A DNA stretch of 64,000 bases. Source: Candidatus Bathyarchaeia archaeon. GTDB taxonomy: Archaea > Thermoproteota > Bathyarchaeia > Bathyarchaeales > Bathycorpusculaceae. Position 1 is the stretch's first letter, and the number at the start of each line of letters is the position of its first letter. Under the pieces are notes generated by a model. It searched no databases. It was not told the DNA's origin and saw only the letters and a program-made list of their open reading frames with translations. The translations under genes and the position numbers were made by a program. Shown piece after piece: positions 15,400 through 50,008 of the stretch. The stretch lies in the NCBI GenBank assembly GCA_050010755.1, contig JBEKKK010000001.1, forward strand, positions 256,001 through 320,000. The letters are read 5' to 3'.

Positions 15400-16509
15400 C
15401 TAAATGATCAGCCGCTCTGTTGACATGTTGCTGAGCATTTTGCTGTTCCTTCGGGTGACAGTTACGTTGTCCTCAATTCTGACCCCAAACTTCCCGAAGA
15501 AGTATATTCCAGGCTCAATCGTGAACGCCATGCCCGGTGCCAATTCCATTCTGTTGCCTTGAACGATGTACGGTTCCTCGTGCACGTCTAACCCCAGCCC
15601 ATGACCAGTCCGATGAGTGAAGTACTCGCTATATCCTGCCTTTTCTATAACGTTCCTTGCTGCAGAGTCAACTTCTTCAGCGGTGATACCTGATTTCACG
15701 CTTTTTACAGCTTCGTCGTGGGCGTTGGAGACGATATCATAAATGTTTTTTTCCTTTTCAGTAGATCCTCCGACGAAAACGGTTCGTGTGAGGTCGCCAC
15801 AGTATCCTTCGCACACGGCCCCCACATCCATTAGCACGATATCTTTTTCGCCAACTTTTCGGTTTGATGTTTCGCCGTGGGGAAGAGCAGAATTCGCCCC
15901 GGAAAGGACGATGCAGAAGGGAACGCTTTCGCCGCCGCTCTCTTTAATGGTGCGCTCTATTTGACAGGAAATTGCCAGTTCGGTGACGCCTGGTTTTATG
16001 AAATCTATTCCCGCCTTTATCCCGTCTCCCACAAAACCTGCAGCTTTCTCTATCAATTTAAGTTCGTTTTCCGACTTTATCCGTCTGAGCTGACTGAAAA
16101 AGGGTGAAGCGTCAATGGCCTTTGTTTTTAATGACTTAGCAGTCAGCATATTGCAGAATTTAAATGGCAGGGTGCCCTCAACTCCGAAAGTAGCCTTCTC
16201 CAGCTTAAGCTCTTTTATCACCTTGTTGAGCAAAGACGCAGGAGACTCTGAATCGGAATAGCTTCTTATTTCGTTAAAAGCGGATTTCTCCTCCGCCTTC
16301 GTCTTCTCCAGCCTCGGAACTATAACTACAGGAGTGCCAGTCGCGACTGGGATAACTATTCCAGCGAACCTTTCCATGGACAAGGTTGAAAAGCCAGCTA
16401 AATATCGCATGTTCTTTTCGGAGACGACCAAGAAAGCATTTATTCCTGCCTTCTTGCCAAGAGTTTTTAACCCCTGTATTCTGGTTTCAAATGCCGACAT
16501 GCTTTTCAT
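15400..16509 (-). CDS. Xaa-Pro peptidase / prolidase (M24B)
   Basis: Creatinase-like N-domain; metal ligands in MDVG, GDLTRT, HRTGHGLGLDVHE, TIEPG, RIED. Confidence 0.93.
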   Translation of the reverse strand: MKSMSAFETRIQGLKTLGKKAGINAFLVVSEKNMRYLAGFSTLSMERFAGIVIPVATGTPVVIVPRLEKTKAEEKSAFNEIRSYSDSESPASLLNKVIKELKLEKATFGVEGTLPFKFCNMLTAKSLKTKAIDASPFFSQLRRIKSENELKLIEKAAGFVGDGIKAGIDFIKPGVTELAISCQIERTIKESGGESVPFCIVLSGANSALPHGETSNRKVGEKDIVLMDVGAVCEGYCGDLTRTVFVGGSTEKEKNIYDIVSNAHDEAVKSVKSGITAEEVDSAARNVIEKAGYSEYFTHRTGHGLGLDVHEEPYIVQGNRMELAPGMAFTIEPGIYFFGKFGVRIEDNVTVTRRNSKMLSNMSTERLII

Positions 16510-16601
16510 CTTCGTGATGCTTGAGATTATCCTTGGCCTGGATATATTAACTCGCTGCAAAAGAAGGGGGAACGTCAACCATAAATAAGTCGGAACCCGA
16601 G

Positions 16602-17222
16602 GTGAGTTTTGGAGACCGCAGGTTGAAGACGATTAGAAACGAGAACTTGTGGATACGGCTGGGCAGCATGTGGACGGTTGGCTTCGCGATTCTTTTCTTG
16701 ACCTGGGCCTTGAGCTTTAGATCTCTCCCAGAAGGTGTCATACGGGGAAGTTCGGGCGCTTATTATGTGCCGGTGAAGGCACAAGACACCACTATGACTT
16801 TCGTACGATTTTTTTTGTGGAACATTTTCGTGGGCTGCATCCCAGTGGCGATTGGCAGCTTGGTCCGGGTGAAAGGCATTCCACTGGGCTATCTTTTGAC
16901 ATTTTATCACTGGGGCATTTACGGAGTTCTCCTCGGGACCAACTCCTTTGTGATTCCAGGAGCAGGCAAATTTATCCCATCCCTCACAACGCTGTTCTAT
17001 GGAAGCGGAATCTATGAGATTACAGCCTACACTCTTATTTCCTCAGCCACCTTCGCTCTGTATAACCGAATTGGAAATCCCAGTGGCAATTTAGATTCAG
17101 CCAGAAAGCAGAAGACGTTCGCTCTGAGGCTTTCAAAAACTGAGTTGACCACCATTGCGTTTGCTATTCTGATCCTGGCCGTAGCTAACTACTATGAGGC
17201 ATGGTCCATCTTTCACATCTGA
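16602..17222 (+). CDS. Membrane protein, possibly SpoIIM-like
   Basis: About 5 hydrophobic segments; FF.WN, GIYE and ANYYE motifs resemble SpoIIM-type proteins. Confidence 0.55.
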   Translation: MSFGDRRLKTIRNENLWIRLGSMWTVGFAILFLTWALSFRSLPEGVIRGSSGAYYVPVKAQDTTMTFVRFFLWNIFVGCIPVAIGSLVRVKGIPLGYLLTFYHWGIYGVLLGTNSFVIPGAGKFIPSLTTLFYGSGIYEITAYTLISSATFALYNRIGNPSGNLDSARKQKTFALRLSKTELTTIAFAILILAVANYYEAWSIFHI

Positions 17223-17465
17223 AGGAAAGGACAAAACGATCTATTTTTCCAGACGCTTCAATCATGTCTTCAATCGACCTGAACCCGATGTCAAAACCAA
17301 AGCGTCCTAATGACAACAGTCCGAGCAGGGTGCACACAAGTAGAGTCTTGGACGCTCTAGAGCTTGAGCTCCAGCGTCTAAAAGTGGTTTATTCTAACAA
17401 TTTTGCATGTCTCCCAAAAGCAATAAATAACTTGAAATTTAATGGTTGAATAAACGTGATGGTAA

Positions 17466-17915
17466 GTGTCGAAAACTGAGAAACGCGTGGCTATAATAAT
17501 TTGTGATCGTTACCACACATGCGCAGGCGGCAAGTGCTTGAGAGCCTTGAAGAACAGGGAGGGAGCCTTCAGCTTATACAAGGACCAAGACGTTGAGCTA
17601 GTAGGTTATACCACTTGCGGAGGGTGCCCTGGCGGAAACATCGAGTACTGCGTCGAAGAAATGAAGAAAAACGGAGCTGACGTCGTTCATTTCGCGACAG
17701 GAATGGTTGTAGGCTATCCACCATGTGCCTACATCGACGACCTTCGAAAGTTTGTCAAGCAAAAGTACGAAATAGAGGTAGTTGTGGGCACGCATCCGAT
17801 TCCACAGAAGTATTACTTGACCCATCAGGCTTTAGGAACTTGGAACTCGCCCAGCTGGAAAGAAAAAATCAAGTACGTAGTCACAGACGAGCAAACACGA
17901 TTAAAATACAATTGA
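17466..17915 (+). CDS. CGGC-domain protein
   Basis: IIIC...CAGGKC, TCGGCPG, VHFATG, PPC, VVVGTH. Confidence 0.9.
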   Translation: MSKTEKRVAIIICDRYHTCAGGKCLRALKNREGAFSLYKDQDVELVGYTTCGGCPGGNIEYCVEEMKKNGADVVHFATGMVVGYPPCAYIDDLRKFVKQKYEIEVVVGTHPIPQKYYLTHQALGTWNSPSWKEKIKYVVTDEQTRLKYN

Positions 17916-18007: not shown

Positions 18008-19057
18008 GTGAAAAATTTGTCTTGGTACATGGAACTGGGAAAAGCCGCAGACACTTTGGTGAACTATGTCCTAAGAGTGAAAAAGAACGAGGACGTCCTG
18101 ATATATGGAGACGACATCGTTGACTTCGAAGTGATGAAGGCCACTGCCGCCGCCGTGAAAACGGCTGGAGCAACACCGACCATAGTTGTTCATGAAACGC
18201 GAGAGATATCATTCACTGAACCCCCGAAGCCGCTCGCCGCTGCAATGATGGATTCAGATGTCACAGTGGAATTCTCGGCAAGAGCAATTCTCTACACCAC
18301 AGGTCAAACAAACGCTTTGAAGAGAAACCGGGCTTACATCTGCCTAACTTCTCTTGACCGCGAGGCAATGGTCAGAACTTTGGGCTGGGTGAACTACCCG
18401 AAAATGGTTGAGCTGGGAGACAAACTTGCCGAAATGACGACGAAGGCCAAAGAGATCAAAGTAACGAGCCCTTCTGGGACAAACTTCTCAGCCCAGATAG
18501 GCGGACGAAAGTTTGAGAACTTCGGTGGCACAGCTGACAAAAGAAAAGTCATAATGTTAGGCGGCCAGACCGGTGGCGCTCCGATAGAGGAAACAGAAAA
18601 TGGTATCCTTGCTTTTGACGGAAACGTTTGGCCTCCAGATGAAATCAAGGCGAACATAAAAACTCCCATAAAATGCAAGGTTGAAAAAGGAGTCATAACA
18701 GAAATCTCTGGAGGTATCGAGGCTGACGTACTACGAAGGTACATGGCAAGCCTCAACGACAAGAACCTGTATCGCATAGCCCACGTCTGCTACGGATACC
18801 ATCCAAAGGCGAGAGTCACAGGCGACATATCTGAAGTCGAAAGAGTCTGGGGCTGCTTCCAAGTCGGATGGGGGTCTCAAGGACCACTCCTCAGACCAGA
18901 CCTAAAGGGCCAATTTGGATGGAGAGCTGCATCACATGACGACGGCATTATACTGAAAGCGTCAATATACCTCGACGGCGAAGCCATCCAAAAAGATGGG
19001 AAATTCGTCCATCCAGACTTGATCCCGCTAGTAAAGGCAATGGGCGTAGTGCAATAG
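18008..19057 (+). CDS. M29-fold metalloenzyme, NicX-like variant (paralog 1)
   Basis: AmpT-like fold (VTSPSGT, FDG..WPP, ISGG.EA) with GGQ, AHVCYG, EVERVWG and SHDDGI site motifs. Confidence 0.8.
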   Translation: MKNLSWYMELGKAADTLVNYVLRVKKNEDVLIYGDDIVDFEVMKATAAAVKTAGATPTIVVHETREISFTEPPKPLAAAMMDSDVTVEFSARAILYTTGQTNALKRNRAYICLTSLDREAMVRTLGWVNYPKMVELGDKLAEMTTKAKEIKVTSPSGTNFSAQIGGRKFENFGGTADKRKVIMLGGQTGGAPIEETENGILAFDGNVWPPDEIKANIKTPIKCKVEKGVITEISGGIEADVLRRYMASLNDKNLYRIAHVCYGYHPKARVTGDISEVERVWGCFQVGWGSQGPLLRPDLKGQFGWRAASHDDGIILKASIYLDGEAIQKDGKFVHPDLIPLVKAMGVVQ

Positions 19058-19264: not shown

Positions 19265-20305
19265 CTATGCGAGCAGTTTTCCGTCTTTCATTACGGTTTT
19301 TCCGTCGAGCATCCACGTCGGTTTTGGAACGACGAAGTCTTGATGCAGGTCGGTCGACACTTTCCCGCCCATGTGTGAGTTGTCGCCTATAGCCAAGTGC
19401 ACTGTTCCTCTTATCTTCTCGCATTCGAGAAGGTTATCTGGCCGCTTTGCGTTTGGGTTTGTCCCTATCCCAAGTTCGGCTAGGTTTCTTCGCGAAAGAT
19501 ACGGTTCCTCTTTTTTGCTGAAGTCAAGCAATTTCCGGAATTCGTCGCCAACCTTTCCTCCGCCAATTATTCCAGTGACTTTTCCATCCTTAAAGACCAA
19601 GGTCATTTTCTCTTTGAGGTCTGCGCACCAGTTTGGCTCCACCACGAGGTTGCCGCCAGCCGTGCCTTCTACTGGTGTGGTGTATGCTTCTCCTGCCGGC
19701 AGGTTGCCCCAAGAGCCTTTCTCGTTGAATATTCCCGTGTCGACCTTACCGTTTCTGTCTTTCACGCTGAAAACGATGTTTGTGCCTCCTGGCGAGGTTA
19801 CCTTAGCTTCGCTGGCTTTTGTAATCCAATCTGCAATTCTTTTAGTTTCTTTTTCTATGAGTTGATAGTCAGCAGCCATGGGTCCGCCCTTGGAAAACAT
19901 TTCTGCCACGAAGGTTGGCATGCTCGCGACTCTTCCTCCAGCTTTGCACGCGTTGACGCGTGCATCGGTGTGAGTGAGCGAATAGGTTGTTATTGCAATA
20001 GTCACGTCTGCGTTCTTCATTTTCTCTTCGACTTCCTTTCCCGGATGAGTTCCATGTTGACCAACCGAAGGATAAGTGTAGAACTCGACAGGGTTTTTGG
20101 GGAATTTTTCTGCCGCGATTTCGCTGACCATCTTTGCCAAGATAGACCGTTCGGCTGCTTCTGCCAATTTTTCGCTAGTCTTGGTTTTCCATTCTGCGGC
20201 TGTTGGAACATCGTTGACAACCAGCACTTTCTCGCCATCTTTCAGTGCCATGTTCACTTTCAACATGTTCACGACGCCGTTCACAATTTTGTCCTTCTCG
20301 ATCAT
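19265..20305 (-). CDS. Aminopeptidase M29 (AmpT/AmpS-like, canonical dimetal site)
   Basis: NLPAGE, NLAELGIGTN, ECEKIRGTVHLAIG, LHQD; start moved to ATG 20305. Confidence 0.9.
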   Translation of the reverse strand: MIEKDKIVNGVVNMLKVNMALKDGEKVLVVNDVPTAAEWKTKTSEKLAEAAERSILAKMVSEIAAEKFPKNPVEFYTYPSVGQHGTHPGKEVEEKMKNADVTIAITTYSLTHTDARVNACKAGGRVASMPTFVAEMFSKGGPMAADYQLIEKETKRIADWITKASEAKVTSPGGTNIVFSVKDRNGKVDTGIFNEKGSWGNLPAGEAYTTPVEGTAGGNLVVEPNWCADLKEKMTLVFKDGKVTGIIGGGKVGDEFRKLLDFSKKEEPYLSRRNLAELGIGTNPNAKRPDNLLECEKIRGTVHLAIGDNSHMGGKVSTDLHQDFVVPKPTWMLDGKTVMKDGKLLA

Positions 20306-20363
20306 AAACATCACAACAGTGTCGATTTTTCGAGCAAATCGTAAACTAGCTGTGCTCAAAAGA

Positions 20364-20371
20364 CTTATAAG
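20364..20371. promoter_or_regulatory. Palindromic TATA element (CTTATAAG) in a divergent promoter
   Basis: 8-bp perfect palindrome between the divergent M29 and nitroreductase genes. Confidence 0.45.
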
Positions 20372-20414
20372 ATTTCTGTTTTGTGATTCTAGCAGAAACT
20401 TGGAAGGATCGATT

Positions 20415-20912
20415 ATGGAAGACCGAATAATTGAAGTTATCAAGAAGCGGAGAAGTGTGCGCCGATACAAGAAAGAATCCTTTCCGATGGAAAAACTTGT
20501 CCATATTATCGAGGCGGCCCGTTGGGCACCTTCAGCCGGCAATTCGCAACCTTGGATGTTTTTGCTGATAAACGACGAAAACATGGTGAAGGCACTGAAG
20601 TCAGTGTCCCCAGGATGGTTGAGAGATGCTCCTGCAGCGATAGTAATGTGTCTCAACAGAGAAAGTGAAACGAATTGGAGTTACATGGATATCGGTGCCG
20701 CGATGCAGAACATGCTGTTGTATGCCCATTCGATGGGGTACGGATGCTGCCCGATTGGCAGTTTCGTCGTTGACGCCATTAAGGGACTCTTAGAATTGCC
20801 AACAAAGCTCGAACCGGTTTTGTTGCTGACGGTGGGCTACCCTGATGAGAAGCCGCCAGCCACAACTCGTTTGTCAACGGGCGAACTTATTTTCAAGAAG
20901 GTTGGAAACTAA
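20415..20912 (+). CDS. Nitroreductase-family flavoprotein, cyclodipeptide oxidase subunit A (AlbA)-like, copy 1
   Basis: RRSVRRY, APSAGNSQPW, VSPGW, DIGAAMQN, GCCPIGSF, LEPVLLLTVGYP; translationally coupled (TAATG) to an AlbB-like gene. Confidence 0.8.
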   Translation: MEDRIIEVIKKRRSVRRYKKESFPMEKLVHIIEAARWAPSAGNSQPWMFLLINDENMVKALKSVSPGWLRDAPAAIVMCLNRESETNWSYMDIGAAMQNMLLYAHSMGYGCCPIGSFVVDAIKGLLELPTKLEPVLLLTVGYPDEKPPATTRLSTGELIFKKVGN

Positions 20913-21211
20913 TGACGAAAAAGGCGGATGACTACCTTTTTGAGATAACCTGCTTCGTGACATCAAGTGCCGAGAGAGCTCTCGGACCCGAACGACAATA
21001 CGGAGCGTGCCGCCTCCTCCAAACGCTCTACATGCTCTCTTTCCTTCCAGACTACGTCGACGTGAAGGGAAACGAGTTGCTGGCGAAAGTCAGAGCATAT
21101 GTGGACGCAGATCCTCAGAACTTCTGGCGTGAACCTCAACTGAAACAGTTTTTCAGTGAGCTCAGTCGACAACTCGCGACAGAGATAAAGAGTCGACAAA
21201 ACTTGAAGTGA
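20912..21211 (+). CDS. Small helical protein, AlbB/DUF6092-like, copy 1
   Basis: 99 aa; YLFEITCFVTSSAE...P..YGACRLL motif shared with 38358..38684. Confidence 0.72.
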   Translation: MTKKADDYLFEITCFVTSSAERALGPERQYGACRLLQTLYMLSFLPDYVDVKGNELLAKVRAYVDADPQNFWREPQLKQFFSELSRQLATEIKSRQNLK

Positions 21212-21266
21212 TAGTACAAGTCAAGTTTTAAATACATCATTCTCTCAGAGACGCGTGGGGATAGTT

Positions 21267-21980
21267 TTGCTCAAAATACTATTCATAAACCCGATGGGCA
21301 CCGACATTTACGATAGACACATGTTGGACACGATAAACGCAGTCAAGAGAAGTGACGTGAAAGCTAAGGTAGTCCATCTGCACAAAGGTCCAGTCCACTT
21401 GGAGTATCACTACTATGAACACTTGAATCTTGACGAAACTCTAAATTGGGTGAGGCGAGCGGAAAAAGATGGTTATGACGCAGTGGTCATAGGCTGTTTC
21501 TACGACCCCGGAGTAAGGGAAGCCAGGGAACTAGTTTCCATTCCAGTTATCGTTCCTGCAGAAGCAACATTACACGTCGCCGCGACGCTCGGACACAAGT
21601 TCTCGATAATCGTGGGTAGACGAAAGTGGATTCCGAAGATGGAAAGCAACCTGTACGTTTACGGACTAGAGAGGAAGCTTGCCTCATTCCGAGCTTTAGA
21701 CTTCACCGTCCCTAAGATGTTTTCTGACCCTGAGAAGCTTGAAAAGGCTATTTTGACCGAGGCCAAGAAGGCACTGAAAGAGGACGGCGCAGAAGTCATA
21801 GTCCTTGGATGCACGATGGAGTCAGGATTTGCGAAAGATTTGACAGAAAAGCTGAAAGTGCCTGTTCTGGACGCTGTTGTGACCTCGTGGAAATATGCTG
21901 AAATGATGGCTGACTTATACCGCAAAGTGGGCTTAACGCACTCCAAACTTTACGGATACGAAGCTCCTCCCGATGCGTAG
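21267..21980 (+). CDS. Asp/Glu/hydantoin racemase family protein (copy 1)
   Basis: ILFINP, IGCFYDPG and VLGCT catalytic cysteine pair; TTG start chosen. Confidence 0.9.
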   Translation: MLKILFINPMGTDIYDRHMLDTINAVKRSDVKAKVVHLHKGPVHLEYHYYEHLNLDETLNWVRRAEKDGYDAVVIGCFYDPGVREARELVSIPVIVPAEATLHVAATLGHKFSIIVGRRKWIPKMESNLYVYGLERKLASFRALDFTVPKMFSDPEKLEKAILTEAKKALKEDGAEVIVLGCTMESGFAKDLTEKLKVPVLDAVVTSWKYAEMMADLYRKVGLTHSKLYGYEAPPDA

Positions 21981-22144: not shown

Positions 22145-22855
22145 TTAAGGCGTTCTCTTTTTCTTATAAGGATCCATGAACGCTTTTTTGCTGTTCGAGA
22201 GGTTTAATTTCACCAAGTCCTCAGCAATCTTCAGCGCAGCTAAGCCGGGATCGACAACGGGCACTTTGAGTTTTTTCTGCATTATTTCTGCTATGTTGAG
22301 TAGACTTCCGCATCCCATGACTAAGACTTCAGCTCCGTCTTCTTCTATGGCTTTTTTGCCTGCGGCAAGCAGTTCCTTGCAGAGTTCATCAAAGTCTTTC
22401 TTGATGTCAAGAACTTTCGTTTCGATTATCCTGGCTGATGCCAGCTTGTGCTTCAATCCGTAAACCGTTATCTTGTCCTCGAACAGTGATGCAGCACCGC
22501 AACCGCCAACACCTATGACTGAGAATTTCCTCCCCAAAATGGACGCTAGATGAATTGCTGGTTCGTTTATCCCAACTACGGGTATGTTTAACGCTTCTTT
22601 CATTGCTTCAAGCGCCGGATCGCCGAAACAATAGTCTATGACAGCGTCGTAACCTTCCTTCTCAGCTTTTTCGGCTTCAAGTAACGCTGGCAGAGCGGCC
22701 CAAGCTTCGTCGTAGAGTTGCTCGATGGAGTCAGGACCTCTCTTCAAGTTTACCACGGTCAGCTTAGTGTCAGGATCTTTGTATTTTTCGAACGCTTCTC
22801 TTATCATGTCAGTCCAAAGATCTGTCGTGACTGGTACGATGACTTTTATTCGCAT
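22145..22855 (-). CDS. Asp/Glu/hydantoin racemase family protein (copy 2)
   Basis: GPDSIE, YCFGDPA and VMGCG catalytic cysteine pair, PVVDP. Confidence 0.9.
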   Translation of the reverse strand: MRIKVIVPVTTDLWTDMIREAFEKYKDPDTKLTVVNLKRGPDSIEQLYDEAWAALPALLEAEKAEKEGYDAVIDYCFGDPALEAMKEALNIPVVGINEPAIHLASILGRKFSVIGVGGCGAASLFEDKITVYGLKHKLASARIIETKVLDIKKDFDELCKELLAAGKKAIEEDGAEVLVMGCGSLLNIAEIMQKKLKVPVVDPGLAALKIAEDLVKLNLSNSKKAFMDPYKKKRTP

Positions 22856-23047
22856 GTTGAAACCCTGAATTAGTGTAGATATATGAGGCGATTTAAGTCT
22901 TTCTAGCAGAGACCAAACAAGGGACAATTAACGAGCTAAAACCGATGCTAATTGATGCGTTTGATTCGGGCAATGAGCTCCAACAAGGTTACGAGAGGAA
23001 AATTCTTTTAAACTATGCAACATTATGGTATTCACAGGCGGTATCCC

Positions 23048-25113: not shown

Positions 25114-25119
25114 TAGTGC

Positions 25120-33145: not shown

Positions 33146-33147
33146 GG

Positions 33148-37697: not shown

Positions 37698-37802
37698 TTT
37701 TGTCACTTCCTGAAAAAAGCTATCTTGGCCGTTCAGCTTATAAAACTTCTCAAAAACCCTTTTAGGCTCGCTGGCGAATCATCTAACAGCTGTCTCTAAA
37801 AA

Positions 37803-42582: not shown

Positions 42583-44949
42583 ATGAAAGAAAGAGTTAGA
42601 AAACTCCGAGAACGTAGCGTCAGCACTAAACCATACATCACACCGGAAAGAGCCGTCCTAATAACGGAATTCTACGCGGGCGGAGAGGCCAGCCAGTCAG
42701 CATCCACACCCGTGAAAAGAGCCCTCGCCCTGAAATACTTGCTTGAAAACAAGCAGATATCCATTGATGAAGGTGAACTAATCGTCGGCGAGAGAGGACC
42801 CGCTCCGAAAGCCGTTCCCACCTACCCAGAGATATGCTGCCACAGCCTCCAAGACCTCGAAATTCTGAATTCGCGGAAGAAAACACCGTTTGCGGTGGAT
42901 AGAGAAACGAGGAGAGCATACGAAAACAAGATCATACCTTTCTGGAAGGACAAATCAATACGGGAAATGATTTTTGATCAAATGTCCAAAGAATGGAAAG
43001 CCGCCTACGAGGCCGGCGTGTTCACAGAGTTTCTGGAACAGAGAGCCCCAGGCCACACGGTTCTCGACGACAAAATCTACTCGAAAGGCATGCTTGACTT
43101 CATTGAGAATATCAAGAAGAGCATACAAAGTCTCGATTTTCTAAATGATCCCGAAGCTCTCAAAAAGATGGAAGAACTCAAAGCCATGCAAATCGCTGCC
43201 GGCGCGTTGATATGCTACGCAGAGCGACATGCTGAAAAAGCCAGAGAGATGGCAAAGAAAGAAAAAAACTCGACAAGAAGAAAAGAGCTCGAAAAGATAG
43301 CAGATGTCTGCTCTCACGTTCCCGCTAACGCACCTCGCGACTTTTGGGAGGCTCTGCAGTGCTACTGGTTTGTCCATTTAGGAGTAATCTCGGAACTCAA
43401 CCCATGGGATTCATTCAACCCCGGCAGGCTTGATCAGCACCTGTATCCGTTCTATAAAAGAGGTTTGGAGCAGAACACTTTAACGAAGGAAAAAGCCAAA
43501 GAACTACTGGAACTGTTCTGGATAAAATTCAACAATCAACCCGCGCCACCTAAGGTCGGCGTTACAGCAGAAGAGAGCAGTACCTACAACGATTTTGCCC
43601 TCATAAACGCTGGCGGCGTGAAAGCCGACGGCTCAGACGGCGTCAACGAGCTCTCGTACCTGATACTGGATGTTGTTGAGGAAATGAGGTTGATCCAGCC
43701 TAGCTCCATGGTCCAAATTAGCAAGAAAACTCCGGATAGTTTTGTGAAGAAGACCGTTGAGGTCATAAAAGAAGGGTTCGGACAACCCTCCGTCTTCAAC
43801 ACAGACGCAATAATTCAAGAACTCCTGCGACAGGGAAAATCGATAGAGGACGCGAGAAACGGAGGAGCGAGCGGATGCGTTGAAACAGGGGCGTTCGGAA
43901 AAGAAAGCTACATTCTCACGGGATACTTCAACCTCAGCAAGATATTGGAAATCACTTTGAACAACGGCATAGACCCGAGGACAAAGAAAAAAATAGGCCT
44001 TGAAACCGGAGATCCTTCAGAATTCAGTTCCTTCAATGACCTCATCACCGCATTTGAGAAGCAGTTAAACTATTTTGTGGACGTCAAAATCAGGGGTAAC
44101 AACATAATTGAAAGACTCTACGCCGAACATCTACCCACCCCCTTCTTGTCACTACTAATAAGCGATTGCATAAAGAAAGGAAAAGACTACAGCGACGGCG
44201 GCGCCAAGTACAACACGAATTACATCCAAGGCGTAGGTCTCGGAACGATAACTGATTCTCTCACGGCAATTAAACACCAAGTCTTTGACGAGAAAAACGT
44301 CAAGATGAAAGAACTGCTCAAGGCTCTACACGCCAACTTTGAAGAGCATGAGAACCTTCGCCAACAGCTCCTGAACAAGACCCCCAAGTACGGCAACGAC
44401 GACGATTACGCAGACGACATCATGAGAACCGTGTTTGAGATTTACTATTGCGCAGTGGAAGGAAGACCCAACACCAAGGGAGGCTACCACAGAATAAATC
44501 TCCTGCCGACGACGGTTCACATCTACTTCGGAAAAGTTCTAGGCGCAACACCTGACGGAAGAAAATCAGGAGAACCCGTCTCCGAGGGCGTTTCACCCGT
44601 CCAAGGAGCCGACAGAAAAGGCCCGACAGCAGTGATAAAATCCGTTTCAAAGATAGATCACATCAGAACAGGCGGAACCCTTCTCAACCAGAAATTCGCG
44701 CCCGAACTGCTCGAAGACGAGCAGGGAAGAGACAAGCTCGGCCATCTCATACGCACGTACTTCAAGCTTGACGGACACCATATCCAGTTTAACGTCATAA
44801 ACGCAGAGACCCTGCGAGATGCACAGAAACACCCCGAAAAATACACAGACCTCCTAGTGAGGGTTGCAGGTTACAGCGACTACTTCGTCGACTTGAGCAC
44901 CGAACTCCAGAACGAAATCATCAAGAGAACAGAACACAAATCGTTCTAG
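42583..44949 (+). CDS. hypD: trans-4-hydroxy-L-proline dehydratase (glycyl radical enzyme)
   Basis: HypD-specific motifs TYPEICCH, FTEFLEQRAPGHTV, ELNPWD, KFNNQPAPPKVG, ESSTYNDF, SGCVE, LTGY, LPTT.H.YFG, RVAGY. Confidence 0.93.
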   Translation: MKERVRKLRERSVSTKPYITPERAVLITEFYAGGEASQSASTPVKRALALKYLLENKQISIDEGELIVGERGPAPKAVPTYPEICCHSLQDLEILNSRKKTPFAVDRETRRAYENKIIPFWKDKSIREMIFDQMSKEWKAAYEAGVFTEFLEQRAPGHTVLDDKIYSKGMLDFIENIKKSIQSLDFLNDPEALKKMEELKAMQIAAGALICYAERHAEKAREMAKKEKNSTRRKELEKIADVCSHVPANAPRDFWEALQCYWFVHLGVISELNPWDSFNPGRLDQHLYPFYKRGLEQNTLTKEKAKELLELFWIKFNNQPAPPKVGVTAEESSTYNDFALINAGGVKADGSDGVNELSYLILDVVEEMRLIQPSSMVQISKKTPDSFVKKTVEVIKEGFGQPSVFNTDAIIQELLRQGKSIEDARNGGASGCVETGAFGKESYILTGYFNLSKILEITLNNGIDPRTKKKIGLETGDPSEFSSFNDLITAFEKQLNYFVDVKIRGNNIIERLYAEHLPTPFLSLLISDCIKKGKDYSDGGAKYNTNYIQGVGLGTITDSLTAIKHQVFDEKNVKMKELLKALHANFEEHENLRQQLLNKTPKYGNDDDYADDIMRTVFEIYYCAVEGRPNTKGGYHRINLLPTTVHIYFGKVLGATPDGRKSGEPVSEGVSPVQGADRKGPTAVIKSVSKIDHIRTGGTLLNQKFAPELLEDEQGRDKLGHLIRTYFKLDGHHIQFNVINAETLRDAQKHPEKYTDLLVRVAGYSDYFVDLSTELQNEIIKRTEHKSF

Positions 44950-44989
44950 GCGAGAAGCAAAAACAGCTAGGACCCATTTTGTGGAACGT

Positions 44990-45973
44990 TCAAATCTCCA
45001 TTTGTTTTCCGATTCCCTCTTCTTTTGCCTTGTCATACACCATCTTTGCCACGGCAGCATCCTCAAGGGCTAAGCCCACGGCTTTCCAGCACGTCGTTTC
45101 GGTTTGAGACGTTCGTCCAGGCTTTTCTCCGCCCACTATCTCATGAAGTTCCGCGTATATGCCATCCTTTGAGATTATTCCGTTCTTCATCGGGATGGCG
45201 AGGTCCCCAGTCTCGGCAAGTGCGCCCTCTAATGTGTCGACGACGATTTTTGCCCTCTTGATTGTTTTGTCATCCAGTTCTCTTCCTTCAGGGCCGACCA
45301 CTCCTATGGAGTTTATATGGGTCCCGGCTGATATCCAGTCTCCGTCCAACACTGGAACCCTCGACGTAGTGGCCAGAACTATTAAGTCAGAGTTTTCCAC
45401 GCATTGCCTGCTGGTTTCCACAGGTTCCACAGTTAAACTCAGTTCTCGCGAGATACCGTCTGCGAATTCACCAGCCCTCTTGGGCAGAATGTCATACACC
45501 TTTATTCTTGTCAGGTTTTTGAGAACCTCCCGCAATCCCCGAACCTGAGCTCTAGCCTGGCCACCCGTGCCCAAGACGCCAACAACATGAGAACTCTTTC
45601 GAGCAAGATATTCCGTCGCAACGGCGCTTGCGGCTCCTGTTCTCGTGGCGGTCAGGTACGTGGCATCCATGAGGGCGAGAGGTCTGCCCGTTTCTGGATC
45701 GTTTAGGAGAATTGAAGCTAATATCGTGGGCAAACCTTGCTTCAAGTTTCTCTCGAATTGAGTGACTATCTTGATTGCTAACGACCCCGTCTTGCTGAGG
45801 TAGGCGGGCATATAATAAGCGAAGCCTTCGTGTTCGTCAACGCTTATGATCGATCGCTTGGGACATGCCACATTTCCTTCATGTTGCTCGAGAAAGGCCG
45901 CTTCTACGACTTGGATAGCTTCCCTCATCGTAACCAATGACTCGACATCGGCTCTACTGAGGAACAAGACCAT
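44990..45973 (-). CDS. Ornithine cyclodeaminase/mu-crystallin family (candidate pyrroline-2-carboxylate reductase or alanine dehydrogenase)
   Basis: MPAY, KIV...N...GLP, LTATRTGAAS, GTGGQA Rossmann motif, HINSIG, ELD, KAVGLALED. Confidence 0.9.
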   Translation of the reverse strand: MVLFLSRADVESLVTMREAIQVVEAAFLEQHEGNVACPKRSIISVDEHEGFAYYMPAYLSKTGSLAIKIVTQFERNLKQGLPTILASILLNDPETGRPLALMDATYLTATRTGAASAVATEYLARKSSHVVGVLGTGGQARAQVRGLREVLKNLTRIKVYDILPKRAGEFADGISRELSLTVEPVETSRQCVENSDLIVLATTSRVPVLDGDWISAGTHINSIGVVGPEGRELDDKTIKRAKIVVDTLEGALAETGDLAIPMKNGIISKDGIYAELHEIVGGEKPGRTSQTETTCWKAVGLALEDAAVAKMVYDKAKEEGIGKQMEI

Positions 45974-46179
45974 TGGGGAAACCTCAAATCTAAGGCGTGG
46001 CAATTCGCACTTAACTTTTTCTTGTTTCTCAAAACGACACGCATCTGTCGCTGAAATATCGGTTTCTTGCTCATCAGAACAGGACCTGGCTACAAAGCCG
46101 AGTCACAATTAGAATCGACCTTCACACAAAACATTTATACGACTTTCAATCGGCGTTGAGGTTGACGCTGTGAAGACTA

Positions 46180-47472
46180 ATGGCCGATTACGACGTAGTT
46201 ATTGTGGGGGGCGGAATTCTTGGTTTATCGACCGCGTACCATGTCAAAACCGTGCATCCTGACGCAGCCATTTTGGTCATAGACAAATTAGGCTCAGCAG
46301 GTCAGGGGAACACAGCTCGGAGCGCGGCCGCCTTTCGCTGCATATTCTCGTCCCAGACGAATTACGCTCTTGCCGATTCTTCCCTTGAATTCTATAGGCA
46401 TTTGGAGCAAGATTTGGGCGTGGATATTAAGCTGCAATGGCTCGGCTACCTCTGGCTCCTGACCGAAAAGGACTACGACGAAACTTCTACCGTTTTCAAG
46501 GATTTAGCACTCAAGAGCGATTTGAAATACACCGAGTACGACTGCAAAGAACTGACCAGGAGATTGTGCGTACGAACAAACTTGGAGAAAGACGAAGAAG
46601 CACAATCTATGGGTTTGGAGGATATTTTCGGAGGCATCCTGATTCCCAAAGCAGGCGTCATAAACGATGTCAGCTCTTTGATCAACTTCTACGAAACCGA
46701 GTTCCTGAGACTCGGCGGAAAAATCCAATACAATGTAGAGGCCAAGAGTTTGATTGCTGAACCTCTCCAACCTTGGGGCATTTCGGGCGAACCCTATTTT
46801 TGGCAGACCGCAAGAGCCGCAGGGGTGAGCACTAATAAAGGCGTCATCAGGGCGAAAAAGACAGTCTTGGCGGCTGGTGCTTGGATTTCACGATTATTAG
46901 ATCCGGTGGGCGTTGAGTGCTACATCAAACCGAAGAAAAGACAGTTCTTCGCCATTGAGGCCAAGAGCAGTGACTTGCAGAAGCTGCTGTTCACCAAAGG
47001 GTTCAATTCACTTGGCTGTTTACCTTTCACCATTCTACCAAGTTTCAGAGTGTACATTCGTCCATTTTCCAAAGAAGGAACCTATTGGGTTGGCTACGCT
47101 GACGATTTCCCAAGGGCCTTTAAACTTGAGGAAGACCCGCAAGCGGAGAAAAATTTCTATGAATATGGCATCTATCAAGTTTTGACGAAGTATTTTCCAC
47201 AGTTTAGGGATGTTCGCGCGTCTTCAGCTTTTGCAGGATTGTACGAGATCAACACCCTTGATGGACACCCTGTGATTTTTGAACAAAATGATTTGATGGT
47301 GGTGGGTGGTGCCAGTGGAAGCGGAATCACAAAAGCAGACGCGATTGGAAGAATCGCTGAGGCTTTGTACAGTGAAAAAGAGTATGCGAGTTTTTACGGT
47401 CACAAGAAGTTCAAAGTCAGTGACCTGGGCCTCGAAAAAAGATATGTGGAACCCGAGAAACTAGTACTCTAG
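46180..47472 (+). CDS. FAD-dependent amino acid oxidoreductase (DAO/sarcosine oxidase beta/proline dehydrogenase-like)
   Basis: VVIVGGGILG, GQGNTARSAA, LAAGAW, AGLYE...DG.P, GASGSGI.KAD.IG. Confidence 0.85.
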   Translation: MADYDVVIVGGGILGLSTAYHVKTVHPDAAILVIDKLGSAGQGNTARSAAAFRCIFSSQTNYALADSSLEFYRHLEQDLGVDIKLQWLGYLWLLTEKDYDETSTVFKDLALKSDLKYTEYDCKELTRRLCVRTNLEKDEEAQSMGLEDIFGGILIPKAGVINDVSSLINFYETEFLRLGGKIQYNVEAKSLIAEPLQPWGISGEPYFWQTARAAGVSTNKGVIRAKKTVLAAGAWISRLLDPVGVECYIKPKKRQFFAIEAKSSDLQKLLFTKGFNSLGCLPFTILPSFRVYIRPFSKEGTYWVGYADDFPRAFKLEEDPQAEKNFYEYGIYQVLTKYFPQFRDVRASSAFAGLYEINTLDGHPVIFEQNDLMVVGGASGSGITKADAIGRIAEALYSEKEYASFYGHKKFKVSDLGLEKRYVEPEKLVL

Positions 47473-47519
47473 CGCATGCATGCGCTTAGTGGAAAATGAA
47501 CAGGGAGAAAAGTGAAAAG

Positions 47520-48656
47520 ATGAAAACGAAAAAAACGACAACTTACTTTTGGTCAGGAAACGAAGCTTGCGTTGAAGCGGCGATAATTGCGGGTTGCCGA
47601 TTCTTCGCGGGTTACCCGATATCGCCTTCGAACGAGATACCTGAAGGTCTTTCAGAACGCCTGCCAAAGGTTGATGGAATATTTATGCAGATGGAAGACG
47701 AGCTGGCTTCTATAGGCGCGGTTATGGGTGCGAGCTGGGCGGGAAAGAAGGCCATGACGGCCACTTCGGGACCCGGTTTCAGCCTAATGCAGGAAACCAT
47801 AGGCTGGGGATTCATGACTGAAACACCCTGCGTAATAGTTGACGTTCAAAGAGTGGGGCCTGGCACGGGACAAGCAACCAAATGCGCACAGGGAGACGTT
47901 ATGCAGACTCGCTGGGGAACGCACGGTGACTACGCGGCCATTGCGTTATCTCCAAACTCGGTTCAGGAAATGTTTGACCTCACAATTAGAGCATTCAACC
48001 TCGCCGAAAAATATCGTACGCCAGTCGTTCTTCTGGCAGACGAGACTATAGCCCATGTCAGAGAGCAAATAGCGGTTCCGCCACCTGAGAGCATAGAGAT
48101 AGTTAACCGCAAGAAACCAAAGACGGGAGAAACCGAGTTTTTTGGCATGAAAGAAGTTGCGCCAATGCCGGCCGTCGGCGAAGGCTTCAACGTTGCTGTG
48201 ACGGCTTCAACACACGATGAACGTGGAGTCCGATTCACGCAGGACGCAGCGGTGCACAGAAGAATGCTTGAAAGCCTCAATGCCAAGATAGATGGTCACG
48301 CGGACGACATCGCCGAGGTGGAGAGCCACAACATTGACGACTGTAGGGTAGGTGTAGTATCTTTCGGCTGCACGTCCCGTGCGGTCTACGAGGCGGTTGA
48401 AATGGCAGAAGCGTTGGGAACCAAGACGGGTTACGTTCGCCTGAAGACGGTATGGCCTTTCCCAGAGAAAGCCGTCCGAAGGCTAGCCAAATCTGCTGAG
48501 AGAATTATCGTTCCTGAGATGAATCTGGGACAGGTTGCCAGAGAAGTTCAGAGAGTCGCATGCAAAACAGAAATTGTGAAGTTGAATAAGATAGGAGGGG
48601 GCGAGCTCATCACGCCTGAGGAAGTGTTCAACAAAATCGTTGAAGGGGGAAAATGA
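47520..48656 (+). CDS. korA: 2-oxoacid:ferredoxin oxidoreductase alpha subunit (2-oxoglutarate type)
   Basis: SGNEAC, FFAGYPISPS, QMEDE, TATSGPGFSLMQE, QR.GPGTG, RWGTHGD, PEMNLGQ. Confidence 0.9.
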   Translation: MKTKKTTTYFWSGNEACVEAAIIAGCRFFAGYPISPSNEIPEGLSERLPKVDGIFMQMEDELASIGAVMGASWAGKKAMTATSGPGFSLMQETIGWGFMTETPCVIVDVQRVGPGTGQATKCAQGDVMQTRWGTHGDYAAIALSPNSVQEMFDLTIRAFNLAEKYRTPVVLLADETIAHVREQIAVPPPESIEIVNRKKPKTGETEFFGMKEVAPMPAVGEGFNVAVTASTHDERGVRFTQDAAVHRRMLESLNAKIDGHADDIAEVESHNIDDCRVGVVSFGCTSRAVYEAVEMAEALGTKTGYVRLKTVWPFPEKAVRRLAKSAERIIVPEMNLGQVAREVQRVACKTEIVKLNKIGGGELITPEEVFNKIVEGGK

Positions 48657-48657
48657 A

Positions 48658-49491
48658 GTGTCCGGGGAGTATTCGTCTCGAAAGTACATGAGGGATTTGA
48701 AGTTACCGTTCTGTCCAGGCTGTGGGTTGTTTTCATTAGGCGCCACCTTCCTAAAGGCTGTGCACGAGCTCGGCCATGAAAACTTGAACGGATTCTGTTT
48801 CGCCAGCGGAATAGGCTGTTCTTCGTGGATTCCTTCACCGTATTTTTTCGCCGATTCAGTTCACACTCTTCACGGCCGAAGTATACCGGTTGCGACCAGC
48901 ATTAAACTCGTGCGCCCAGACCTGAGCGTGGTCGTGTTCGGCGGGGACGGAGACATCGTTGGGATCGGTCTTAGCCACTTCGTACACGCTGCAAGACGCA
49001 ACACAGACATACTGGTCGTTATGGGCAACAACATGGTTTACGGAATGACAGGGGGGCAAGTAGCACCCACAACACCCTTCAAGACCCAGACAACAACCAC
49101 TCCATATGGAAGCTTTGAACATCCACTGGACGCCGCAAGACTCGCCGTCGCCGCTGGAGCAGCATATTCTGCACGTTGGACTACCGCACATCTGAAAGAA
49201 CTGAAGGAATCGATGAAAACCGCGCTACAGATGCCCGGCTTCAAGTTCATAGAAGTTGTAACCCAATGTTTTACAGCGTACGGCAGAAGAGCCGGCTTCA
49301 AGGACGTAGGAGGGATGCTGAAGTATTTCAGAGAAAACGCTGTTGGGGTACAGCAAGCTGAGAAAATGAGCGAAGAAGAACTTGAATCGAAAATCGTTGT
49401 GGGAGAATTTGTTAAGAGAAAGCGTCCGACACTCGTGGAGACAGTTTACGCAATAATCAAGGAGGCAAAGACAAGTGGTGAACAAGACTGA
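48658..49491 (+). CDS. korB: 2-oxoacid:ferredoxin oxidoreductase beta subunit
   Basis: FCPGCG, SGIGCS, HTLHGR, GGDGD...NN TPP motif, YGMTGGQ.APTTP. Confidence 0.92.
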   Translation: MSGEYSSRKYMRDLKLPFCPGCGLFSLGATFLKAVHELGHENLNGFCFASGIGCSSWIPSPYFFADSVHTLHGRSIPVATSIKLVRPDLSVVVFGGDGDIVGIGLSHFVHAARRNTDILVVMGNNMVYGMTGGQVAPTTPFKTQTTTTPYGSFEHPLDAARLAVAAGAAYSARWTTAHLKELKESMKTALQMPGFKFIEVVTQCFTAYGRRAGFKDVGGMLKYFRENAVGVQQAEKMSEEELESKIVVGEFVKRKRPTLVETVYAIIKEAKTSGEQD

Positions 49492-50008
49492 AATAAGATT
49501 CGGCGGAAGCGGTGGACAGGGCGTGGTCCTAGCTGCACAGATACTTGGAAAAGCGGCAGTTCTGGAAGGAAGAAACGCTCTGCAGACACAAGCATACGGA
49601 GCCGAGGCCAGAGGAAGCATGGCCAAGAGCGAAGTCATCATATCAGACAGCAAAATAGGCTTCCCCGCCGTCAGGAAGTGCGACATACTCGTGGCGATGA
49701 ATCAAGAATCACTCAACACATTAATCAGGGATATGAAAGAAGACGGAATGCTCATAGTTGATAGCACCAACGTAACAGAATTTCCTGAAACAAAAGCTCA
49801 AGTCTACAAGATTCCAATCACGGAAACTGCAAAAAAAGAATTCGGAGAAGCATTCTACGCAAACATGATCATGTTAGGTGCCTTCACAAAACTAACTCAC
49901 CTAGTGAGCAGAGAAGCGATGGAAAAAACAATAAGAGAAAACGTCTCGAAAGAAACCATCGAAAACAACATCAAGGCTTTCCAGAAAGGCTTAGAACTAG
50001 ACCATTAG
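49475..50008 (+). CDS. 2-oxoacid:ferredoxin oxidoreductase gamma subunit
   Basis: EIRFGGSGGQG, QAYGAEARG, NMIMLGA, N.KAF.KG. Confidence 0.92.
   Translation: MVNKTEIRFGGSGGQGVVLAAQILGKAAVLEGRNALQTQAYGAEARGSMAKSEVIISDSKIGFPAVRKCDILVAMNQESLNTLIRDMKEDGMLIVDSTNVTEFPETKAQVYKIPITETAKKEFGEAFYANMIMLGAFTKLTHLVSREAMEKTIRENVSKETIENNIKAFQKGLELDH

Follow-up and report, generated by a model that had tools for sequence, protein, structure and literature searches.

A region in the genome of the anaerobic Candidatus Bathyarchaeia archaeon GCA_050010755.1 is likely a composite catabolic island, in which a gene set for hydroxyproline (Hyp) and proline is joined to two copies of a conserved feeder module. The region occupies positions 15400-50008 of the window, which is the whole stretch of 64,000 nucleotides that was analysed (contig JBEKKK010000001.1, 256,001-320,000, forward strand). 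Each copy of the module contains a transporter, a cytoplasmic NicX4-type enzyme of the M29 peptidase fold and a divergent gene pair resembling AlbA and AlbB, the two subunits of a flavoenzyme that dehydrogenates cyclic dipeptides (diketopiperazines, DKPs). Judging from its gene content, the module probably serves to degrade small peptides rich in proline, or cyclic forms of these. Among the candidate substrates DKPs come first and specificity for them is plausible, while hydantoin-like compounds or linear Pro/Hyp peptides would fit the same genes almost as well. For the composite island with DKPs as its foremost substrate, we see an even chance of being right. DKPs, especially those containing proline, are abundant and resist ordinary peptidases, and proline-containing peptides cyclise readily to them.

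Every sizeable open reading frame (ORF) between 12 and 52.6 kb of the window was compared with Pfam and NCBIfam profiles. The results are collected in Table 1. An earlier sequence-only reading of this DNA had proposed a system for cyclic dipeptides, and every gene family that it named was found at or near the place it gave by Pfam, NCBIfam and Protein Data Bank (PDB) comparisons. The host genome is 2.19 Mb in size, in 8 contigs, and 93.5% complete. About 33 kb of it hold both of its DUF6092 (AlbB-like) genes, both of its PF01177 racemase genes, its sole HypD gene and four of its five NicX-like genes (for the last tally, a profile search gave four matches, one of them outside the window, and the canonical M29 copy was added from the comparison with PDB 7cn3). 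This concentration argues that the clustering is not due to chance. Neither the cyclodipeptide synthase (CDPS) family (PF16715) nor the condensation domain of non-ribosomal peptide synthetases (NRPS; PF00668) gave a match in the 93.5%-complete genome, so that the lack of both in the window, as noted in the sequence-only reading, extends genome-wide. Since this lack goes together with importers, peptidases and Hyp/Pro-degrading enzymes at one locus, the locus reads as catabolic rather than biosynthetic, in agreement with that reading.

Copy A of the module (17.5-30 kb of the window) consists of a CGGC-domain gene, NicX1, the M29 gene NicX2, AlbA/AlbB-like pair 1 (NTR1 and CDOB1), the racemases Rac1 and Rac2, NicX3, an Opp importer and a binding protein. 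Copy B (34-38.7 kb) consists of a major facilitator superfamily (MFS) transporter, a luciferase-like (LLM) oxidoreductase, NicX4 and pair 2 (NTR2 and CDOB2). The canonical M29 peptidase, a further NicX-type enzyme and the two racemases, which are of the hydantoin-racemase-like kind, are found only in copy A. The AlbB-like alignment was used as a profile against genome contigs, which gave 28 loci (designated by L numbers), and these were compared with the window proteins by tblastn and blastp; 15 of them carry record titles naming Bathyarchaeia or Bathyarchaeota. An AlbA-like gene was present in 27 of the 28 loci and a NicX-type gene in 12 (13 if a weak, partial match is counted), including 11 of the 15 with such titles. 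A racemase, an orthologous Opp system (at least 39% identity) and a family-5 binding protein were found in eight loci each, a HypD homologue in five, and a proline racemase (ProR) together with an OCD-family gene in three, which are the closest relatives of the window.

Five of these loci (L022, L025, L028, L032 and L035; L027 in part) share one gene order: M29(-), NicX4-type(-), AlbA-like(+), AlbB-like(+), then either an MFS gene or HypD with its activase, followed by OppF-D-C-B with the binding protein(-), a racemase(-) and, where the contig extends that far, a NicX1-type gene. Rac1 orthologues are 75-86% identical in all five, and the Opp orthologues within this conserved module are 65-80% identical. 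At the end of the module, NicX1 orthologues of 88-91% identity were found in L022, L025 and L032. In the same three loci an MFS homologue directly follows the AlbB-like gene, and in L016 another lies upstream of the LLM and NicX4 genes (64-81% identity). NicX2 has nine orthologues (75-79% identity), each in tandem with a NicX4-type gene. The closest locus, L016, is syntenic with 28-47 kb of the window at 76-93% protein identity. Most of the AlbB-like and NicX-type homologues that carry a name come from metagenome-assembled genomes labelled 'Candidatus Bathyarchaeia'. The sequence-only reading had suggested a search for AlbAB-like genes without CDPS together with hydantoin-like racemases, NicX-type genes and family-5 solute-binding proteins; this combination does recur in several Bathyarchaeia genomes.

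As a reverse check, 20 NicX4-anchored regions were picked by hand from 89 listed places, about half from DUF6092-positive and about half from DUF6092-negative genomes; they are not a random sample. Opp genes and racemases occur in 10 regions each, HyuA/HyuB and DUF917 in five each and split or fused AlbAB-like genes in seven, and in two regions a Cys-Cys ProR and a DAO-family gene flank NicX4. Further neighbours include an M19 dipeptidase, an M20-like peptidase, MFS transporters and a beta-propeller protein. AlbAB-like pairs were also found in Heimdallarchaeota (L021) with HyuB-HyuA-HyuB, a racemase and Opp, in Bipolaricaulota (L043) with a HyuA/B fusion, and in Spirochaetota (L042) with HyuA, DUF917, an NCS1 permease and M20. 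HyuA/HyuB is an ATP-dependent hydantoinase/oxoprolinase. Most of these contexts appear to share a core of a transporter, a racemase and one or more amide- or peptide-cleaving enzymes, to which the flavoenzyme would be an optional addition. The guild with HyuAB, DUF917, M19 and M20 points to the catabolism of peptide-derived cyclic amides.

At the genome level, a class sample of 400 genomes was searched, and a strong NicX4-like match was defined as E <= 1e-80. The three class searches share per-family denominators and were therefore taken as covering the same 400 genomes. DUF6092 was found in 20 genomes, a strong NicX4-like gene in 34 and both in 11, two of which have only sub-threshold DUF6092 matches. 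With the limit that related genomes are not independent, the NicX-type and AlbAB-like genes travel together more than expected: a NicX4-like gene is present in 11 of the 20 DUF6092-positive genomes versus 23 of the 380 DUF6092-negative ones.

The closest structural relatives of both AlbAB-like subunits are AlbAB and the Ndas cyclodipeptide oxidase (CDO) (PDB 8uc3 and 9exv), which are DKP alpha,beta-dehydrogenases of albonoursin-type biosynthesis. For NTR2, 8uc3_A (AlbA) ranked first among PDB entries and 9exv_A next, and the DUF6092 profile matches AlbB (9exv_C, E 1.5e-7; 8uc3_D, E 1.3e-4). The three FMN-phosphate arginines of AlbA are retained in NTR2. The Glu-Pro-x-x-Tyr-x-x-x-Arg motif of CDOB2 corresponds to E33/P34/Y37/R41 of AlbB, and its spacing is identical in CDOB2 and 13 other NTR2-type sequences of the alignment. 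Mutation of AlbB Tyr37 abolishes the activity of AlbAB (PMC11055893). In CDOB1 the Glu and Pro are swapped relative to CDOB2, while the Tyr and Arg, which are invariant columns of the AlbB-like alignment, are retained. The start of NTR1 was revised, the called ORF (20097-20912) being replaced by the most likely gene of Table 1, and that of NicX2 likewise. These revisions leave a divergent intergenic region of 100 bp between the M29 gene and NTR1, similar to the 96 bp between 37706 and 37803. Pair 1 was also considered as a decayed pseudo-pair; this was ruled out by its orthologue in L015 (NTR1 66% and CDOB1 67% identical), where NTR1 stands beside the same divergent NicX-type neighbour.

The pairs differ from AlbAB in having no CDPS and in their anaerobic host, and NTR2 has a Gly in place of AlbA Ser54. 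No clear counterpart of AlbA Cys115 emerges from the alignment. Since the host is anaerobic, O2 is not a possible acceptor for the AlbAB-like flavoenzyme. HMMER pairs the Cys of NTR2 with Cys115 only through gaps, and without gaps it lies one residue off. This Cys belongs to an Asp-Cys-(Ala/Ser)-Met-Ala stretch and is conserved in 27 of 35 aligned AlbA-like sequences, i.e. in NTR2 and homologues from the L016-L043 range and L058; all NTR2-type rows have it except L043, and NTR1, the fused forms, L052 and L059 lack it. In AlbA, Cys115 links FMN covalently, and only CDPS-linked CDO A subunits are said to have that Cys (PMC11055893). The class sample includes fused AlbA-AlbB-like genes with open frames of 300-329 amino acids, among them those in G342:C14, G285:C1, G329:C11 and G342:C16 (L056, L057, L060 and L061). 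They adjoin NicX4-type genes, racemases, DUF917 and Opp genes and match the fusion forms described in PMC11055893. In L057 the group of racemase, NicX-type and fused CDO-like genes is adjoined by a homologue of the CGGC protein.

Rac1 and Rac2 each contain a conserved pair of Cys residues (Cys81/Cys186 and Cys100/Cys206), which are kept in 25 of 25 and 24 of 25 homologues. The spacing of about 105 residues agrees with the one that we take hydantoin racemase to have. Among solved relatives, hydantoin/allantoin racemases and the epimerase OpaE are the closest, not the amino-acid racemases; the E-values are 4e-25 and 8.5e-31 for hydantoin racemase versus 2.8e-7 and 3.7e-9 for aspartate racemase. 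Cyclic amides are favoured as substrates because their stereocentres would be invertible by a cofactor-free two-thiol racemase. Among cyclic amides, DKPs would best fit the Opp-type importer, the dipeptide-level peptidases, the AlbAB-like enzyme and the Pro/Hyp enzymes.

The four NicX/M29 proteins of about 350 amino acids are missed or barely detected by Pfam, and all of them match PDB 7cn3 (NicX, M29 fold). They are homologous over most of their length to NicX, a 2,5-dihydroxypyridine 5,6-dioxygenase, and to the M29 aminopeptidases AmpS/PepS/AmpT. The alignment of the ligand columns bore out the sequence-only reading, which had noted four M29-fold genes, three of them with an altered metal site. 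NicX2 keeps the M29 pattern Glu...Glu-x-Glu...His...His-x-Asp and hence the full binuclear set. NicX1, NicX3 and NicX4 have His for the first (bridging) Glu and Trp or Val for one His, with Glu-x-Glu and His-x-Asp kept. All 36 aligned sequences of the NicX4/NicX3 type have the same set of His, Glu, Glu, Trp, His and Asp, so that the altered site is kept by selection and is no product of decay; the NicX1 type departs from it at the Trp alone. The His...His-x-Asp that aligns with NicX is kept in 47 of 47 NicX1- and NicX4/3-type sequences. The altered site joins this NicX-like element with the Glu-x-Glu of M29 peptidases, which NicX lacks in the alignment. We take His/His/Asp to be a mononuclear site, presuming that these are the residues with which NicX binds iron. 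NicX4 has no signal peptide.

For the NicX-type proteins we infer a hydrolytic role. NicX4-type homologues of 62-65% identity were found in records labelled Atrimonas thermophila, Atribacteria, Coprothermobacterota and Aerophobetes, all presumably anaerobes, which argues against a dioxygenase role. Together with the oxygen-sensitive glycyl radical enzyme of the island, this makes it unlikely that the NicX-type proteins are true dioxygenases. No nicotinate-pathway gene was seen among the Pfam-annotated neighbours in the window, although no search aimed at nic genes was made. The idea that NicX-type proteins simply substitute for the ring-openers HyuAB and DUF917 was weakened, since both co-occur with NicX-type genes in some loci. 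The family as a whole gave 1726 matches at E <= 1e-10. One member (P0207), 64% identical to NicX4, is labelled Atrimonas thermophila, which is cultured (a 2.24-Mb contig is on record) and could serve as an experimental handle. At a second locus of the host genome (G000:C1:611000-631000, L070), AcnX large and small subunits (37% and 32% identical to those of the window) lie together with the fifth NicX-type gene (39%) and with genes for ABC ATPases.

The right half of the island (about 38.8-50 kb) is a recognisable anaerobic Hyp/Pro gene set, a known kind of pathway. HypD (trans-4-hydroxy-L-proline dehydratase) is present in a single copy in the genome with its activase gene adjacent; the activase scored 397 on the HypD (T4HPD) activase model against a cut-off of 425. 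The proline-racemase-family protein is of the Cys-Cys (racemase/epimerase) type and not of the Cys-Thr (dehydratase) type, and since it falls below every equivalog cut-off, proline racemase and Hyp epimerase fit it alike. The AcnX pair scored 319 bits on NF051439, under the cut-off of 700, and is one of four AcnX copies in the genome, at least one of which is presumably the dehydratase of the archaeal mevalonate pathway. HypD stands beside the module in three gene orders: in the window and L016; in L027, L028 and L035 directly after the AlbB-like gene; and in L032 next to the racemase. In L028 and L035 it shares the strand of the AlbB-like gene and lies immediately downstream of it. The NF043068 scores are 1171 bits in L028, 1165 in L035 and 1239 in L032 (partial), against a cut-off of 1100. 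In L027 (3555-5997) the HypD homologue is broken up over two ORFs, with 60% and 57% identity to the window HypD, which may be a frameshift or an assembly error. In L046 and L048, which are from other Bathyarchaeia families and have no flavoenzyme, a Cys-Cys ProR homologue and a DAO homologue flank NicX4-type genes; DAO homologues of 44-46% identity do so in L046, L048 and L049.

Previous studies noted HypD in archaea (PMC6219649) and described clusters of ProR, OCD and proline dehydrogenase in Thermococcus/Thermococcales (PMC4364671). The window resembles the HypD pathway of gut Clostridia and the Pro/Hyp clusters of Thermococcus litoralis in these sources, having a HypD above its cut-off together with an activase. 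It differs in that HypD is combined with AcnX, OCD, DAO, 2-oxoacid:ferredoxin oxidoreductase and the NicX/AlbAB-like feeder module. Loci of the Clostridiales type have hypD beside proC (PMC6219649), whereas no proC-like gene is among the families found in the window.

Based on the gene content, we propose the following route. Small Pro/Hyp-rich peptide derivatives with an acidic alpha-hydrogen, DKPs being the foremost candidate, would be imported by Opp with the family-5 binding protein or by the MFS transporter. Their stereocentres would be inverted by the two-thiol racemases, and opening and cleavage would follow by the NicX-type, M29 and M24 metalloenzymes. The AlbAB-like flavoenzyme may dehydrogenate, or in reverse reduce, the C-alpha/C-beta bond of the ring with an acceptor other than O2. 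Free Hyp and Pro would then be handed to HypD and the other imino-acid enzymes. HypD with its activase would convert trans-4-Hyp into pyrroline-5-carboxylate (P5C), the Cys-Cys enzyme would interconvert L and D imino acids, and AcnX with the OCD-family reductase would convert 3-Hyp through pyrroline-2-carboxylate into proline. The DAO-family dehydrogenase and the 2-oxoacid:ferredoxin oxidoreductase would oxidise the products. All of these steps are predicted from the sequences. The further proposal, that this is the first genetically defined DKP catabolism, anaerobic and archaeal, in which NicX-type enzymes as a new class of O2-independent hydrolases for cyclic dipeptides or X-Hyp, hydantoin-racemase-like enzymes as DKP epimerases and an O2-free AlbAB-like DKP dehydrogenase/reductase feed HypD fermentation in Bathyarchaeia, is doubtful in our judgement.

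Several points weigh against the proposed reading of the island. Ser54 of AlbA, which assists the catalytic Tyr and whose mutation to Ala reduces activity about 62-fold (PMC11055893), aligns with Gly in NTR2, and the characterised CDOs use O2 (PMC11055893). CDPS-free CDO operons occur in nine archaeal phyla and also in anaerobes, including Thermococcus (Andreas and Giessen 2024; PMC11055893). In seven Methanomethylicia-type loci (L024, L026, L029, L031, L033, L034 and L040) no peptide genes were found near the AlbAB-like pair, which is followed by a conserved 230-amino-acid protein without a Pfam family, with a radical-SAM protein in four of the seven and Complex-I-like genes nearby; these neighbours were dropped as a clue to function for want of a peptide link. 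Since 23 of the 34 NicX4-like-positive genomes have no AlbB-like gene, the flavoenzyme would be accessory. HypD is above its cut-off in 23 of the 400 genomes, only two of which are among the 20 DUF6092-positive and two among the 34 NicX4-like-positive ones. Hence HypD is not enriched with either gene, the genome-level counts do not support a general functional coupling of HypD and CDO-like genes, and their physical linkage is lineage-specific. The family-5 binding protein reached no NCBIfam equivalog cut-off, its top matches being nickel and glutathione binders far below theirs, and binding proteins of family 5 are not specific for peptides. A protein derived from M29 can be a peptide binder without catalytic function, as is CgnE (PMC10070186); the lead to CgnB/CgnE, which came from 17% of one Atlas cluster, was kept solely as a caveat on this point. 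Finally, the aldehyde dehydrogenase family PF00171 gave no match in the 93.5%-complete genome, while it was present in 14 of 14 control genomes. The canonical P5C dehydrogenase was thus rejected as the step from P5C to glutamate, and the route from P5C through glutamate to 2-oxoglutarate has no canonical enzyme. This weakens the proposal of the sequence-only reading that Pro/Hyp is fermented via 2-oxoglutarate.

It is unlikely, in our estimate, that the module is confined to linear oligopeptides that are Pro/Hyp-rich or partly racemised. In that case the NicX-type and M29 proteins would be special di- or aminopeptidases (e.g., for peptidase-resistant X-Hyp bonds), the racemases would act on freed amino acids, and the AlbAB-like enzyme would have a separate redox role on an imino-acid intermediate. 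Such substrates would account for the Opp importer, for the M24 and M29 folds with their M19 and M20 neighbours, for NicX4-type genes beside ProR, DAO and HypD, and for the lack of the flavoenzyme in most NicX-type loci, and Pro-Hyp is known to be poorly hydrolysed by host peptidases (PMC6219649). They accord less well with the weak match of the racemases to aspartate racemase, with the predicted cyclic-amide hydrolases HyuAB and DUF917 that recur in the guild, and with the catalytic Tyr motif that the flavoenzyme retains from AlbB, part of a DKP-acting enzyme. That the module degrades hydantoin- or allantoin-like compounds (imidazolidinediones of purine or other origin), with the adjacent Hyp/Pro genes forming a separate pathway, seems quite unlikely to us. 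The hyu systems, which consist of a racemase, a hydantoinase, a carbamoylase and a permease, do follow the same plan, in which a racemase is combined with a ring-opening hydrolase, a downstream amidase and a transporter, and the nearest relatives of Rac1 and Rac2 are the hydantoin/allantoin racemases. HyuA/HyuB accompanies AlbAB-like or NicX-type genes in L021, L043, L047, L050, L051, L054 and L055, DUF917 is a neighbour in L039, L042, L051, L053 and L059-L061, and related loci have the NCS1 permease (L042) and M20 peptidases; substrates of this kind were also proposed for CDPS-free CDO clusters (PMC11055893). However, the host genome contains neither Hydantoinase_A (PF01968; HyuA) nor DUF917 (PF06032), although amidohydrolase-type hydantoinase, allantoinase and carbamoylase were not searched for. 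The transporter is of the Opp/Dpp peptide type, peptidases that act at the dipeptide level (M24, M29, M19 and M20) abound in the guild, and the genes are tied to imino-acid catabolism, HypD, Cys-Cys ProR and DAO repeatedly flanking NicX4-type genes.

Mere adjacency, in which the Hyp/Pro genes and the NicX/AlbAB-like/racemase/Opp module are independent and only share a variable genomic island, has little chance of being the explanation. It would agree with the lack of association of HypD with DUF6092 or NicX4-like genes in the class sample, and with a patchy distribution: within the same GTDB family, nine of 100 other genomes have DUF6092, and G068, the one listed genome of the same genus, has none. 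Independent genes would, however, hardly be expected to bring HypD next to the module in three gene orders, one of them directly 3' of the AlbB-like gene on the same strand, or ProR and DAO to the flanks of NicX4-type genes in other families. A biosynthetic cluster for a modified cyclic peptide or a hydantoin-type secondary metabolite is hardly credible. All characterised CDOs are tailoring enzymes and this option was raised before (PMC11055893), but it was rejected here on a 93.5%-complete genome that has neither CDPS nor an NRPS condensation domain, and importer-type transporters with a binding protein and degradative neighbours (HypD, 2-oxoacid:ferredoxin oxidoreductase and peptidases) speak against it as well. 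The catabolic island with DKPs as the leading candidate remains our preferred reading.

Table 1. Features of the island, with their coordinates in the window and the matches on which the assignments are based.
Feature	Position	Strand	Evidence
M24 Xaa-Pro dipeptidase-like peptidase (Creatinase_N + Peptidase_M24)	15400-16578	-	Pfam E 3.3e-67
CGGC-domain protein, upstream of NicX1	17466-17915	+	Pfam PF08821 E 3.1e-30
NicX1, NicX-type M29-fold protein	18008-19057	+	PDB 7cn3 E 2.5e-11; ligands His, Glu, Glu, Val, His, Asp
NicX2, canonical M29 aminopeptidase-like protein, full binuclear ligand set	19265-20314	-	Pfam M29 E 1.5e-4; 7cn3 E 2.6e-7
NTR1, divergent AlbA-like nitroreductase-fold subunit, pair 1	20415-20912	+	Pfam PF00881 E 5.1e-35
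CDOB1, divergent AlbB-like (DUF6092) subunit, pair 1	20912-21211	+	Pfam 24.5 bits, below the 28.7 cut-off
Rac1, hydantoin-racemase-like two-thiol racemase	21255-21980	+	PF01177 E 4.9e-40; best PDB 3qvj, 5lfd
Rac2, second hydantoin-racemase-like racemase	22145-22927	-	PF01177 E 1.1e-44; PDB 3qvj E 8.5e-31
NicX3, NicX4-type paralogue, 58% identical to NicX4	23015-24094	+	7cn3 E 1.5e-13; ligands His, Glu, Glu, Trp, His, Asp
OppF, OppD, OppC, OppB, peptide-type ATP-binding cassette (ABC) importer	24142-28013	-	ABC_tran + oligo_HPY twice, BPD_transp_1 + OppC_N, BPD_transp_1 + BPD_transp_1_N
Family-5 solute-binding protein with N-terminal membrane anchor and Ser/Pro-rich linker	28275-30005	+	SBP_bac_5 E 6.6e-54
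421-aa membrane protein, PMT-type mannosyltransferase, GT2	30192-33897	+	Pfam
MFS transporter	34019-35239	-	MFS_1 E 2.8e-53
Luciferase-like (LLM) oxidoreductase	35379-36431	+	Bac_luciferase E 3.1e-56; TIGR03619 176.3 vs cut-off 166.9
NicX4, NicX-type M29-fold protein, divergent from pair 2	36651-37706	-	7cn3 E 1.6e-15; ligands His, Glu, Glu, Trp, His, Asp
NTR2, AlbA-like subunit, pair 2	37803-38354	+	PF00881; best PDB match AlbA 8uc3_A E 2e-26
CDOB2, AlbB-like (DUF6092, PF19585) subunit, pair 2	38358-38684	+	Pfam 80.6 bits
Proline-racemase-superfamily enzyme, Cys-Cys type	38785-39804	+	Pfam E 6.2e-120; both catalytic Cys motifs present
AcnX large and small subunits, cis-3-hydroxy-L-proline dehydratase-like	39922-41561	+	AcnX E 1.4e-132; swivel domain E 2.1e-23
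Glycyl-radical-enzyme activase (radical SAM)	41664-42581	+	TIGR02494 363.6 vs cut-off 174
HypD, trans-4-hydroxy-L-proline dehydratase	42583-44949	+	PFL-like + Gly_radical (PF01228); NF043068 1332 bits vs cut-off 1100
OCD/mu-crystallin family protein, pyrroline-2-carboxylate reductase-like	44990-46003	-	Pfam E 6.5e-83; no equivalog cut-off reached
DAO-family FAD dehydrogenase, candidate proline or hydroxyproline dehydrogenase	46180-47472	+	Pfam E 1.4e-45
2-oxoacid:ferredoxin oxidoreductase alpha, beta, gamma	47496-50008	+	POR_N, TPP_enzyme_C, POR; alpha NF006412 532 vs cut-off 411

The M24 protein scored only 239 bits on the NCBIfam archaeal PepQ model against a cut-off of 630, and it was therefore assigned at the family level. 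In the family-5 binding protein, a long linker rich in Ser, Pro, Ala and Thr follows the membrane anchor. The neighbouring trio of the 421-amino-acid membrane protein, the PMT-type mannosyltransferase and GT2, which recurs beside NicX-type genes in L016, L020 and L047, is probably accessory and concerned with surface-protein glycosylation, and it may glycosylate this linker. The luciferase-like oxidoreductase is probably F420-dependent, and its gene was found only in the closest relatives, L016 and L017. Directly upstream of the island, at 7290-13846, the window contains an HdrA-, HdrC- and HdrB-like (CCG) set and a gene for acyl-CoA dehydrogenase, followed on the other strand by those for ETF beta and alpha. 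Together they look to be an electron-bifurcating acyl-CoA dehydrogenase/ETF/Hdr module, which could take up electrons from the flavoenzymes of the island or supply them. Two ORFs had no Pfam match at relaxed thresholds: a 404-amino-acid one at 50090-51304(-), which had no NCBIfam match either, and a 111-amino-acid one at 16575-16910(-).

Andreas and Giessen, who listed 274 operons and for whom 88% of CDO-like operons are CDPS-free, reported an enrichment of the CDPS-free ones in PF01177 racemases, DUF917, AroM, peptidases and ABC transporters for dipeptides/oligopeptides; hydantoin- or allantoin-related substrates or unknown secondary metabolites were suggested for them (PMC11055893). The island shares with these operons (PF00881 + PF19585) the adjacent or overlapping AlbA/AlbB-like gene pair without CDPS in anaerobic archaea, as well as the racemases, transporters and peptidases. 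It differs in having two diverged pairs in one island. The NicX-type M29 proteins, HypD and the Hyp/Pro enzymes are not mentioned in the accessible text of PMC11055893, although its operon list may show them. The sequence-only reading had stated that no pathway of this form was described in archaea. This needs narrowing, since CDPS-free CDO clusters with racemases, transporters and peptidases had already been reported there; what stands is that the NicX-type/M29 association, the HypD adjacency and the two-copy layout are not mentioned in the accessible text of the literature searched. In that literature PF19585 is mentioned only in PMC11055893, and no gene was identified for a DKP hydrolase. 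According to Perzborn et al. (2013), little is known on DKP degradation, and Otzen et al. (2018) speculated that some genes annotated as 5-oxoprolinases are cyclic dipeptide hydrolases.

Bathyarchaeia are described as the predominant archaea of cold anoxic marine sediments (PMC9534799). Their diet is largely inferred, and a defined, transferable module linking the uptake of peptide-derived cyclic amides to Hyp fermentation would offer a testable substrate hypothesis. If the substrate is an ordinary linear peptide or a hydantoin, the finding reduces to a useful annotation of a known cluster type. A module of the kind described would also assign a function to the CDPS-free majority of CDO-like operons (PMC11055893) and to the many anaerobic proteins of one large family that carry a NicX or aminopeptidase annotation. 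If the further proposal made above is true, Pro/Hyp DKPs from plant and animal necromass would enter a HypD-based fermentation in Bathyarchaeia.

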